Shown here piece by piece: positions 13,033-17,406 of a stretch of DNA of 50,065 nt (position 1 is its first letter; each line of letters opens with the position of its first letter). The notes under the pieces are model-generated. The model had not been told where the DNA came from and did not search any database. It saw only the letters and a list, made by a program, of their open reading frames with translations. This DNA is from Infirmifilum sp. (GTDB taxonomy: Archaea; Thermoproteota; Thermoprotei; Thermofilales; Thermofilaceae): assembly GCA_041287245.1 (NCBI GenBank), contig JBEULP010000042.1:1-50065 (forward strand), read 5' to 3'. A program made the position numbers and the translations under genes.

Positions 13033-14192
13033 AAGCTATATTAAAAGGGTTGTATAATAAGCGCGGACGCAAGGACGAAGCACCTTCAATGATACCAGTA
13101 AATGAACTTCTCCCAGCCCAATCAGCCATAATTTTGAAAAATTCCTTCGGCTTTCTCGCGAGATCAGACGGAAAGATCGAGATTATTCCGATTAGAGAGC
13201 ATCCTGTCTGGAAAAAGTTTTCGCCGCTATTTCTCGCCAGCGAGGTGGAGGAAATCTGGTTGTTCGAGGGGAAAACTGTGGCAACCATAAAGAACTTCGG
13301 TAGGATCAGCATTAAGGGATCACCGTCTCCCGAGGAACTTGAGAACCTAATCATCAGTATAATAGCTGCCACTGGGGTAAAGGTTGACATGAGAAAGCCT
13401 CGTGGGGTTGTCGACGTAGATGATTGGCGTGTATCCATTCAGCTATCTAGCGGTGGACAAACACAAATCGTGGCAACACGACTCTCCAGCGTTCCGCCTC
13501 TAAAAGAGCTGATCGACCCTATCACGGCAGCGAGGTTGATGGTTCTACTTTTAAGACCCGCTGTGATTGTGATTCTAGGCCCACCAGGCTCGGGAAAATC
13601 CACGTTGCTGAATAGCTTGGTGGGAGAGATCGCAAGGATTTTCCCCAATCTGCACCTAGCTGTTGTTGAAAAATACCGTGAGCTCGTATTCAAGGAAGGG
13701 TGGTTCTCTTGGATCTTAAGCGAAAACCTGGTAGACGGTGTTAGATGGGCTATGCGCTACTTTAGGCCTGATCTAATCGTGGTGGGGGAGATAATGGCGG
13801 AGGACTTCTGGAGCATTGTGGAGCCTAGTCGAAGCGGTTTGCCGACGATCACGACGTTCCACTCACCAACGATTAGAAAAGCGGTGAAAGTGCTCTCGGA
13901 CTCTCTTAGAGCACAACTAGGCTATGGCGACGAGAATAGTGTTCTGCAATATGTTGACGTGTTTATTCAGACTCAAAAAAGAGTTACCCCCAGGGGCATA
14001 GAAAGAGGGGTCGAAAGCATCTTCATAAGCGACGGGCAAAGACTCATCCCCTTCTACGCCGCGGGAAAATCCATGTCTGACGAAGAATTCCTCCAAGCGT
14101 TACCGGAGCAAATATACGTCGGCCCAACAGTAAAAATTCTCACCCAGCTCCTTTCCGAATATGGGGTCTCGGCCCGTGAATACCGCGGTTGA
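13029..14192 (+). CDS. VirB11/TadA(CpaF)-family secretion ATPase
   Basis: Walker A GPPGSGKS, Asp-box-like VEKYREL, RPDLIVVGE, His box TTFHS. Confidence 0.88.
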   Translation: MKAILKGLYNKRGRKDEAPSMIPVNELLPAQSAIILKNSFGFLARSDGKIEIIPIREHPVWKKFSPLFLASEVEEIWLFEGKTVATIKNFGRISIKGSPSPEELENLIISIIAATGVKVDMRKPRGVVDVDDWRVSIQLSSGGQTQIVATRLSSVPPLKELIDPITAARLMVLLLRPAVIVILGPPGSGKSTLLNSLVGEIARIFPNLHLAVVEKYRELVFKEGWFSWILSENLVDGVRWAMRYFRPDLIVVGEIMAEDFWSIVEPSRSGLPTITTFHSPTIRKAVKVLSDSLRAQLGYGDENSVLQYVDVFIQTQKRVTPRGIERGVESIFISDGQRLIPFYAAGKSMSDEEFLQALPEQIYVGPTVKILTQLLSEYGVSAREYRG

Positions 14193-15577
14193 TTCCTATT
14201 ACGCAAGAAGAGGATGTAAAACAGATCTTTGAAGGGGCTGGGCTTATCCCCCGCTCGGGACAGGTAGAGGTAGCTCAGGCTATCCGCGGAGTAGAGGGTG
14301 ATGTGCTGCTCGTCGCGCCTACAGGCTGGGGGAAAACGCTCGCCGTGCTTGCAGCCCTAAAAACACGTTTACCAGTGCTTTGGCTAGTCAGATCCCTCGA
14401 AATTGGGCGTAGAGTAAGCGAGGACGCTTCTCGCCTTGGCCTTAAGGCGTTTGTCGCAGCTGGAAGAGCTAAGACTTGCCCCTACGCGCGCGTCGGAGAT
14501 GTAGACGAGTTCTGCCGGCTACACCGTAGCCGTTGCCCCTACTTCCTGGAGCTTTTGAAAAAAGGAGTTGGCGAAGCCTGGAGTTACGAAGAACTCCCGC
14601 CGACTATCTGCCGATACTACGCACAGGACGTTATAGCGGCTGATGTTGTCGTGCAAAACTATTTTAGACGCGTGGCTCACAGGTTTGAAACAGTTGTTGT
14701 AGATGAGGCGCACAACCTACTTAGGCCTGTGATCCACGAGGTGAGGGGGCTTGAAGAGGCTATTGACGAGCTGGCCCAGCTGGAGCCGACTCTCGCGTCA
14801 CAAGTAAGGGACATTTTGGAGCGGGAAGGAGTGATTAACATCCCACTCGAGCTAGCCTGGGATGTCTTAGAGTTATACAGGGAACGCCTCTTAAAGGGAA
14901 CGTTGATGTCTCCCCTTGCTAGACTTCTAAAAGCCGGCATAAGGGGGGACATAGTATATAGGGAGGCGGGGCGTGTTCAGATTTACCATACGATTCGCAT
15001 CCCTCAAGCGAGGAGGATCTATATTAGCGCTACAATCCCCGAAGAGGCTTCGAATTTTTTTCATGCCGCGGTGATACGCGTCCCCATCTCTCCTCGTCCT
15101 GCACAGATCACCGACTATTTAACTTCAAAGTACGGGGAGGAAACTATCGGAGGATATAGTCATTTGCTGTGGACGTTGAAGAAGAAGTACACGCGAATTG
15201 TTGTTTTCACCACCGAGAGGCTTGCACGCAGGCTGCATGCTGATTTTTACGAGGAACGCCTGCCGCCGGATTGGAGGGGGGTTGCTCTCTTTAATATCTA
15301 CGGGCGGTTTGCAGAAGGTGTTGACATCCCCGCAGACGCCGTCGTGATTCTCGGCGCACCCTTTCTCCCCCCAGAAGTAACAGAAAAAATAGGGAAGTAT
15401 TATAGACGCATAGGCTTAGACGCCGACGCCGCCCACTGGCTGCCCATGGTCACCGCTGTATTACAGGCCATTGGCAGGGCAACAAGAGAGCCCGGCGCAA
15501 CCCCCGATATTATCCTCGCAGACTATCGATTCAAAAGGTACATGAGAAAGTTTGAGCCATACTTAGTCTTCGATTGA
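14189..15577 (+). CDS. Compact XPD/DinG-like SF2 helicase with Fe-S cysteines
   Basis: Q motif RSGQ, APTGWGKT, CPY..FC..CPY..ICRYY, DEAH, SAT, EGVD, QAIGRATR. Confidence 0.9.
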   Translation: MIPITQEEDVKQIFEGAGLIPRSGQVEVAQAIRGVEGDVLLVAPTGWGKTLAVLAALKTRLPVLWLVRSLEIGRRVSEDASRLGLKAFVAAGRAKTCPYARVGDVDEFCRLHRSRCPYFLELLKKGVGEAWSYEELPPTICRYYAQDVIAADVVVQNYFRRVAHRFETVVVDEAHNLLRPVIHEVRGLEEAIDELAQLEPTLASQVRDILEREGVINIPLELAWDVLELYRERLLKGTLMSPLARLLKAGIRGDIVYREAGRVQIYHTIRIPQARRIYISATIPEEASNFFHAAVIRVPISPRPAQITDYLTSKYGEETIGGYSHLLWTLKKKYTRIVVFTTERLARRLHADFYEERLPPDWRGVALFNIYGRFAEGVDIPADAVVILGAPFLPPEVTEKIGKYYRRIGLDADAAHWLPMVTAVLQAIGRATREPGATPDIILADYRFKRYMRKFEPYLVFD

Positions 15578-15620
15578 AAAATATTTTTCTCCGCTTGTAC
15601 ACCTTCCCACCTTAACTGGT

Positions 15621-15785
15621 GGATCTCCGCGCGCCGGATGAAGAGCCCTCAGCTGGCGGGAGTCCCGGCCGGTCCGGGGCTTGGGCGGCAGCCGCCTTGG
15701 GCGGGGAGATGGGGGTTGCTCAGCCTGGTACGGCGAGCGCGACTAGCCGGGGGTGAGCCCTTAGCGCGTGAGTCTCCCCGCTTAA
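15621..15785 (+). ncRNA. Unidentified GC-rich structured non-coding element
   Basis: 118/160 G+C over 15621-15780; several stems whose G-U pairs favour the + strand; no ORF; no SRP or RNase P hallmark motifs seen. Confidence 0.55.
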
Positions 15786-15876
15786 AGACTTAAAGCCGTC
15801 GCGACATTTAAAAATCAAGGGAAAACAAAAACAAAAGAAACAGTATGAGAAAGGAATGAATTCTAAGTGTGAGTTT

Positions 15877-15924
15877 GAAAGTACTTTCGCCATATCAGGT
15901 TAGTGATATTAAGTAAAGTACTTT
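15877..15924. promoter_or_regulatory. Two AAAGTACTTT palindromes flanking a TATA-like box
   Basis: GAAAGTACTTTC 15877-15888, AAAGTACTTT 15915-15924, ATATTAAG between them. Confidence 0.6.
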
Positions 15925-15938
15925 TGTATTACGAGGGT

Positions 15939-16592
15939 ATGACGCAGGATATTGAAGCTATCATGAGAGAACTCACTGACACCGAGCGAAGAATTGTTGA
16001 ATTTTTCCTTAGACAGGGAGGCTCAGCACGAGAAATAGCCTCAGCGCTTAACGTCTCGGAGCGCACTGTTTACAAGGCCCTTTATAAGTATAGGAAGCTT
16101 GCCCGCGAGAACGGTCTAGACCCGAGCGCATTTTATCTACGGGGAACACTACAACTCCAAACCGCGCCGCCTCCTGAGCGAGCCCCAATACAACCGGATG
16201 TTATGGAGAGCCTAAAAAAGGATATATTAAGAGAAGTGACAGAAATCTTGGAAAAAAGTGTTCATGAAGCAGTGTTATCAGCATTCGAAGAACTTTTTGC
16301 TGCTTCAAACTTACGGTACAGGCCACTCCCTACGCCACCCCCATATAAAAACCCCCTAGAAAATGTAGACCACGTCGTAATCACCAGGCTAGTCGAAAAC
16401 CTGGAACGCCTAAACTATAACTTTGAAACTCTTGCTCGAAAACTGGACCACCTTCAGAGCTTCGACACGGCTCAAAGGACTGGCCATTCACAAGTTCAGG
16501 TGGGGGACAATGGGTATTCAGGCGAAAATGTGCTCCCCAGCTTCGTCCAGAATAATCCTTGGATAGAGGTTCTCCAGAAGAGAAAATACTAA
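15939..16592 (+). CDS. HTH DNA-binding protein with coiled coil and C-terminal PSFxxNNPW motif
   Basis: SAREIASALNVSERTVYKAL HTH; ATG 15939 preferred. Confidence 0.8.
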   Translation: MTQDIEAIMRELTDTERRIVEFFLRQGGSAREIASALNVSERTVYKALYKYRKLARENGLDPSAFYLRGTLQLQTAPPPERAPIQPDVMESLKKDILREVTEILEKSVHEAVLSAFEELFAASNLRYRPLPTPPPYKNPLENVDHVVITRLVENLERLNYNFETLARKLDHLQSFDTAQRTGHSQVQVGDNGYSGENVLPSFVQNNPWIEVLQKRKY

Positions 16593-17315: not shown

Positions 17316-17406
17316 CGGGCCCGCCGGGACTTGAACCCGGGACCTACGGCTATCCACACTTTTACCTTCCGCAGGCCGCCACGCTTCCTAGCTACGCCAC
17401 GGGCCC
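17316..17406 (-). tRNA. tRNA-Arg(GCG) with 17-nt intron at 37/38 (17352-17368)
   Basis: GGGCCCG/CGGGCCC acceptor, GCGGC-CTGCGG|intron|A-GCCGT, CCGGGTTCAAGTCCCGG. Confidence 0.93.

Follow-up and report, generated by a model that had tools for sequence, protein, structure and literature searches.

Repeated OrfB-related loci of P. abyssi give rise to the K-turn RNAs sRkB and sRkC (and to sRk48 and sRk52), which bind L7Ae, and sRkB and sRkC are described with two L7Ae-binding K-turns and a predicted loop E (PMC3124441). The paREP2/PaRep2b sequences of Pyrobaculum comprise a multi-copy ORF of ~500 amino acids, regarded as a putative transposon and located at sites of rearrangement (PMC3558965). 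Archaeal conjugative plasmids have no known relaxase homologues, and the account of the Ted DNA-import system raises the question of how crenarchaeal elements might mark DNA for transfer without one (PMC9905601). A cis-acting module carried by such elements would make that question testable. Here, we describe a structured-RNA family of mobile elements that is real and apparently undescribed, its RNA nature being predicted, and of which one copy lies directly behind a helicase gene in the DNA that we analysed (hereafter ‘the window’, a stretch of 50,065 nucleotides from genome G000). This copy very probably belongs to a dispersed family of many-armed elements in Thermofilaceae. It is a shortened, reduced member, it looks orphaned and degenerate, and it is probably a relic: in short, a poor specimen of a family with fuller copies in L418, L420, G004 and G018. 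No description of the element was found in the literature, covered mainly through open papers, and the portion of PMC3388794 available had nothing bearing on it. The family is absent from Rfam and comes from a lineage with few described non-coding RNAs; it is tied to little-studied elements of conjugative type, between which and a host DNA-transfer operon a helicase is exchanged, and its covariance model provides a marker by which such mobile elements may be located.

Base composition alone sets the locus apart. At 72% GC, positions 15621-15785 (put at 74% in an earlier note on this DNA) form the sole 165-nt stretch of at least 68% GC in a window that averages 47%. The island reported in that note thus exists and the strings quoted from it all occur at the positions given, but its edges and its fold had been misread. 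Delimited as 15621-15785, it folds no better than shuffled sequence (z -0.12), as does 15615-15795 (z -0.29 on the + strand, -0.57 on the - strand). The real start lies ~35 nt earlier, giving a unit of 15586-15709 (Table 1), and the architecture of the family is recovered when 15584-15712 is folded, with minimum free energy (MFE) structure and centroid identical (z -1.76; 10 of 200 shuffles equal it). Taken alone, this segment adopts the family layout at both 37 and 70 °C, with a short H2 and a short arm 2. The hairpin formerly drawn across 15621-15665 is improbable, the pair probability of its inner stem CGCCGG/CTGGCG being 0.01, and a supposed pseudoknot between 15643-49 and 15676-82 is really an ordinary nested helix (p 0.79-0.98). 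More survives of the long 3' hairpin: it beats shuffles (z -2.5 on +, -3.2 on -) at a pair probability of ~0.5, but it rivals the closing stem of the family, and since 15699-15709 is common to both, the two folds are mutually exclusive. Beyond a weak alignment to G004 (z 2.9), no counterpart of this hairpin was found in family members other than the C82 copy (Table 1).

Table 1. Features of the window at and around the element
Feature	Position	Strand	Remarks
DEAD/Helicase_C_2 (XPD/DinG-like) helicase gene	14189..15577	+	stop abuts element; last gene of a parA-coiled coil-T2SSE ATPase-helicase run, beside Ted-like cluster
A5-TA-T5 tract	15577..15588	+	recurs in family just 5' of pyrimidine tract
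Closing stem P1, 5' strand (pyrimidine tract)	15586..15596	+	in MFE structure and centroid of 15584-15712
Hairpin H1, CCACC/GGTGG, T-rich 6-nt loop	15607..15622	+	best-conserved part of family
Hairpin H2	15624..15641	+	shorter than C-run/G-run hairpin of other members
Arm 1	15637..15685	+	degenerate K-turn-like base, helix 15643-49/15676-82, internal loop, helix, G-rich apical hairpin
Arm 2, cut down to small hairpin	15684..15697	+	
P1, 3' strand	15699..15709	+	also 5' strand of competing long hairpin
Long 3' hairpin	15697..15785	+	15704-15810 98% identical to C82 copy
CRISPR-leader-like A-rich stretch, shortened	15779..15842	+	aligns to leader-repeat units C82:62192, C85, C35 and G001
Solitary degenerate CRISPR repeat	15843..15867	+	3 mismatches to C85 array repeat
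HTH regulator gene	15903..16592	+	outside element; neighbour through rearrangement

Within the window copy, H1 pairs with a probability of 0.98-1.0 at 37 °C and 0.36 at 75 °C, and the apical pairs of arm 1 reach ~0.35. The base of arm 1 sets GA opposite GG at the place of the family K-turn, as does arm 1 of L418, and so matches only the relaxed K-turn rule there: at the position usual for the family the motif departs from the canonical form and runs into H2, and the single strict match in this copy sits elsewhere. The A5-TA-T5 tract aligns to copies from G004 and G007 (z 4.2-7.2; 0 of 100 shuffles) and may represent a terminator-like U run. No TATA-like site was found upstream of the window copy, and a sigma-70 and terminator scan, ill-suited to archaea, found nothing. 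Rfam 15 gave no family at gathering score over the element (the lowest E-values, 0.73 and 3, belong to - strand matches) or over the copies of its relatives, and neither the Rfam models nor ARAGORN detected tRNA, 5S, SRP or RNase P signatures, as the earlier note had judged from the letters. Contigs from three hot-spring DNA runs of one study (X1-X3) contain the window copy with few letter changes. One, 15680 C>T (X2 and X3), converts a G-C pair of arm 1 to G-U and keeps the pairing; another, 15721 C>A, breaks one pair of the 3' hairpin.

The earlier note had proposed BLAST for homologues in Thermofilaceae; with 15600-15810 as query against 60 relatives this yielded chance-level matches only (best E 0.016), and relatives emerged instead through a hairpin pattern and a covariance model. 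The 5' hairpin pattern retrieved GC-rich repeats, present as several copies in each of G005 and G004 and as a single one in G002, and a metagenome search with the helicase (at least 46 loci, from 7 of the 64 parts of the set) retrieved L418 and L420, in which the same layout lies directly 3' of helicases 37-39% identical. Covariance model R1 was built from seven sequences of L418, L420, G004 and G005, with both G000 copies left out. Applied to 11 sources (186 kb), it returned seven matches, among them a second G000 copy on contig C82 (E 0.0057) and the G002 copy (E 0.00046), while the only match in the window, 15584-15680 on the + strand, was weak (E 0.082). Across 41 genomes it returned 15 matches, spread over five of the 22 genomes of family f1, and none in the 18 outside it; under the stricter filters of that search G000 had no match at E 0.05. 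Seven matches were new to the model (two in G004, three in G018, one each in G015 and G001) and all of them, read by eye, show both family hairpins; the copy in L498 is without arms. The 19 members compared below do not include the G007 copy, which scores E 2 with R1, and are not independent, six coming from G005 and four from G004.

Several other candidates fell away. Eight pattern matches in G004 are the ribosome-binding side of a 493-aa ORF read in reverse, rather than the domain. Membership is doubtful for the stretch behind the G006 helicase, which has 14 nt in common with the window (z 3.0): it occurs as a single copy, its fold is no more stable than that of shuffles and the model misses it. 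A 17-nt hairpin pattern run against genome contigs hit records of unrelated taxa among the matches listed; a 35-nt exact pattern found nothing in metagenome contigs, and a 16-nt H2 pattern gave 24 viral matches, none in a family context. Plasmids and phages gave no match past short GC-rich chance ones, and neither the 493-aa ORF nor the helicase led to a family locus in viral sequences.

The members have a common predicted fold, in which a closing stem pairs a pyrimidine tract with a purine tract and encloses hairpins H1 and H2 and then two to four arms. Each arm consists of a helix and a bulge capped by a G-rich apical hairpin, and K-turns sit at the arm base. Closing stems of 15-40 bp occur with altered sequence in L418, L420, G005, G018 and G001, and P1 is kept despite sequence change even between copies within G005. 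On the strand corresponding to that of the window, L418 folds at z -4.5 (-2.6 on the other strand) and L420 at z -7.2 (-3.5 on the other); 13 of the 19 members reach z <= -2.9 with 25 shuffles each, many of them likewise on the other strand, and the two G000 copies stand at z -1.6 (window, marginally better than shuffles) and +1.2 (C82, no better than shuffles). Hairpins H1 and H2 covary. H1 is 93.8% paired over 13 sequences, a value as high as which occurs in 0 of 500 shuffles, and H1 and H2 together are 89.4% paired with 22 double changes over the 23 rows of alignment A9, which was fitted to the model and includes four spurious or reverse rows; again 0 of 500 shuffles match the percentage or the score. 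The loop of H1 is conserved in sequence and other parts vary. Four near-identical apical repeats are present in both L418 and L420, and arm 2 in G005 contains AGUA/GAA, which we take to be a loop-E-like motif.

K-turns are an RNA motif, and their distribution in the family is strand-specific. Of 19 members, 16 have strict K-turns on the + strand, where 1.5 would be expected, and one has them on the - strand, where the expectation is 0.7, under a rule that was adjusted after examples had been seen and in a set with 10 of its 19 members from G005 and G004. In 13 of the 19 members one is found where arm 1 begins, at its base, with a second K-turn ~85 nt onward in L420, G004a, c, d and G018b. The element probably acts as RNA.

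How does such an RNA compare with the described classes? It resembles sRkB and sRkC in being GC-rich, in coming from repeated loci of a hyperthermophile and in its relation to mobile-element genes, a likeness drawn from descriptions, with sequences compared through Rfam only; unlike these RNAs, which match the 3' ends of orphan OrfB genes, the domain is found 5' of tnpB or at a distance from it, and its multi-arm layout is closed (PMC3124441). As with the TnpB omega-RNA and the IS200-IS605 right end (HgcC, RF00062), there is an association with tnpB in G005, G007 and G018, but the domain stands 5' of tnpB genes from several unrelated subfamilies (L346-L349, L413, L505 and L498) and occurs without tnpB too, as at the window locus, which has none. 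The HgcC model finds no match in 15500-15950, though it does detect a true end in L038, and the position of the domain upstream of tnpB, not at its 3' end, led us to reject this identity. Archaeal H/ACA and C/D guide RNAs likewise have K-turn motifs and several hairpins, and a box-C-like AUGAAGA occurs at 15638. Unlike H/ACA RNAs, the family has K-turns at the arm base instead of above a pocket and no ACA box after the arms; in the window the only + strand ACA is at 15599, upstream of H1. A C/D box sRNA was rejected on the absence of CTGA from the + strand of 15580-15790, an archaeal intron on the absence of a bulge-helix-bulge from the window (such a motif is matched in 2 of 19 members), and a MITE on a closing stem that varies in sequence between copies and on G-U pairs confined to one strand. 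Short direct repeats, read by eye, bound a removable region in G004.

The members sit in conjugative-type mobile elements, where the domain either follows a helicase of the window type or a HerA-like ATPase gene, or precedes TnpB genes of several subfamilies or a LAGLIDADG-like ORF of 420-500 aa. One case is L349 (G005:C1:1364000-1383999), an integrated element with VirB4/HerA-like ATPase, RadA-like, zinc-finger and AAA genes. It has two copies of the domain, one directly after a helicase 99% identical to the host copy of G005 and the other behind a HerA-like gene of 602 aa. L349 also has a copy of the coiled-coil gene, with no T2SSE ATPase between it and the helicase. HerA-like, zinc-finger or AAA genes are common to L349, L418, L420, L506 and L507; with the queries used, G000 yielded none of these mobile-element genes and no LAGLIDADG-like gene. 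In 11 of 19 members the domain is preceded by a TATA-like site and then ~200 nt of GC-rich sequence. In elements of G005 and G007 (L347:8927-9001, L409 and L411), a hairpin from the host pre-16S rRNA leader has been copied (74-96%) upstream of the domain.

Adjacency to the helicase recurs in L349, L418 and L420. Among 22 helicase loci scored by eye, four carry the domain, 15 do not and three are partial or doubtful (the G005 host copy, G006 and L417), and the carriers appear to fall in two separate clades among element-free helicases. Such a pattern agrees with a helicase exchanged more than once between element and host, and not with conservation by vertical descent. The proposal in the earlier note of a novel structured + strand RNA, possibly tied to the DNA-transfer operon, is upheld in substance, by the lack of an Rfam match, the covarying homologues, the strand-specific K-turns and the helicase adjacency in G005, L418 and L420; a stand-alone host RNA conserved at the locus does not accord with 15 of 22 helicase loci lacking the domain. 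Of the two linkages that the note had suggested following, that to the helicase holds at 4 of 22 loci and that to the HTH-ef1b block does not, other neighbours standing there in relatives: orthologues of the HTH gene are preceded by tRNA-like or other genes in G001, G003, G004, G006, G007, G010 and G014. By gene content the window resembles the Ted system, since ParA, an ORF of pilin size, membrane proteins and a VirB4/HerA-like ATPase are all encoded ahead of the helicase; the part of the Ted description available mentions neither a helicase of this type nor a cis element, and the paper contains no ‘Thermofil-’ name (PMC9905601).

On balance we favour, by a modest degree, an account in which the family is a many-armed mobile-element RNA with K-turns predicted to bind L7Ae and to control neighbouring transcripts, of which the window has a shortened, probably orphaned copy. 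Its mechanistic part, action in cis through predicted L7Ae binding, is more tentative and is drawn by analogy from the K-turn motif and from L7Ae binding at OrfB-related loci (PMC3124441); G000 has two genes of the L7Ae family (PF01248). The RNA would arise through transcription that reads on past the helicase operon or, where present, from the TATA-like site 180-280 nt upstream. It would then fold as a closed domain with L7Ae clamping arms 1 and 3, its repeated G-rich apical hairpins offering several sites for an element-encoded protein. In cis, the domain might protect the 3' end of the upstream mRNA or gate the downstream gene, and L7Ae binding might stabilise or control the transcripts of adjacent mobility genes. 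The window copy is likely to have reached the chromosomal helicase through recombination with an element bearing a copy of that helicase, and likely to have lost arms afterwards and become joined to a decayed CRISPR leader-repeat.

Alternatively, though this is unlikely, the RNA could be a trans-acting cofactor or scaffold of the LAGLIDADG-like (PaRep2b-like) protein, as omega-RNA is for TnpB, and so drive its spread. This ORF follows immediately after the domain in G004 (four long copies), G001 and G018 (L506), and the repeated arms of the domain suggest multiple binding sites. The 420-500-aa ORF has 109 relatives at E 0.001; the model of the G001 protein (pLDDT 74) has a predicted C-terminal LAGLIDADG-like domain that superposes on WhiA with Z 8.5 (rmsd 3.4 over 82 residues) and on I-Tsp061I with Z 7.6. 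Against this reading, the best Foldseek match is modest (E 0.017) and there is no Pfam match, a variable guide segment was not identified, six of eight G004 copies of the 493-aa ORF are without the domain, and the copies that follow helicases (window, L418 and L420) adjoin no such ORF. The ORF family is amplified in G004 (L352-L357; 15 related proteins), its long copies containing the domain and its short ones lacking it between short direct repeats. An Atlas lead of 0.77, a lead only, connects the G004 ORF with paREP2/PaRep2b; it differs in having no Pfam PaRep2b match, and a linked RNA goes unmentioned in the portion of PMC3558965 available.

Rather less probable is a transfer or replication origin of a relaxase-less element, working as single-stranded DNA or RNA primer, with the T-rich loop of H1 as nick or priming site and the arms as protein-binding repeats. 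Its place in conjugative-type elements, flanked by genes for the helicase and a HerA-like ATPase, would suit such an origin, as would an H1 loop conserved while the rest varies, the four near-identical apical repeats of L418 and L420, and the want of known relaxase homologues in archaeal conjugative plasmids (PMC9905601). It sits poorly with K-turns that are an RNA motif and strand-specific in this family, with the second G004 contig (31.5 kb) having no copy, and with two copies in L349 and six in G005. Similarly improbable is a bolder combination, in which the family would be the RNA component of an as yet undescribed class of archaeal mobile elements: an L7Ae-clamped multi-arm RNA, together with the LAGLIDADG-like protein or the helicase/HerA motors, would mark or process transferred DNA in place of the relaxase and oriT missing from crenarchaeal conjugation, leaving the window copy as the scar of a helicase exchange with a Ted-like operon.

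G000 has a second, internally deleted copy of the element, at C82:36254-36490, which has the 5' hairpin and 15704-15810 (98%) but has lost ~80 nt of the middle. It lies between an IS605-like right end (an HgcC-like end ~270 nt upstream, E 3e-4, below gathering score) and a gene that, from its sequence, we presume to be YhbY-like. Its core is uncovered in runs X1 and X2 and covered in X3 by a helicase-side contig only. Both G000 copies end with an A-rich stretch and a single degenerate CRISPR repeat; judged by its homology to array leaders, the 3' flank of the window element (15779-15867) is a decayed CRISPR leader with one repeat, and the leader feature holds for this flank only. It is very improbable that the window copy is a GC-rich distal leader part or chance GC island resembling the family by convergence, for although leader-like DNA and a repeat follow both G000 copies, a long imperfect palindrome stands at similar distance in true leaders (G000, G001 and G003) and the model E-value of the window is only 0.03-0.08, true leaders lack H1 and do not align to 15620-15790, the C82 copy retains the upstream promoter region of the family (z 8.1 to G004), and helicase adjacency is seen again in L349, L418 and L420.

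The CRISPR repeat occurs at 13 loci in G000 (C6, C17, two in C19, C35, C64, C70, C80, three in C82, C85 and C96), with C85 the sole array (five repeats, at a contig end) and most others solitary repeats, several with leader-like DNA upstream; such loci may reflect the decay of arrays, a regulatory role for solitary repeats or sequence lost in assembly. At G000:C19:46793-46881, two repeats interrupt an apparent gene, with a ‘spacer’ whose end repeats the flank in reverse complement, which suggests ectopic integration or misassembly. A second, independent fusion of element and repeat is present at L345:8150-8230 (G005), where an element copy ends in a solitary repeat within an inverted repeat. 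The palindrome of the genus leaders has GTGATA/TATCAC-like closing ends and lies ~125 nt before the first repeat (seen in L391-L396, L398, L399 and G000:C85 and C35). A search with 197 CRISPR spacers gave a single 17-nt match, taken as chance. Contigs branch at the degenerate repeat (window 15834-15867), and one X3 contig links the helicase side to the gene downstream of the C82 copy, through either a real rearrangement or an assembler path. Elsewhere in the window, three tRNA genes contain insertions (1196-1298, 1368-1469 and 17316-17406), just the last of which is detected by ARAGORN. Finally, a perfect 12-bp palindrome at 15877-15888, upstream of the HTH gene, has a right half that recurs upstream of HTH orthologues and of the G007 element promoters, and is a possible operator.
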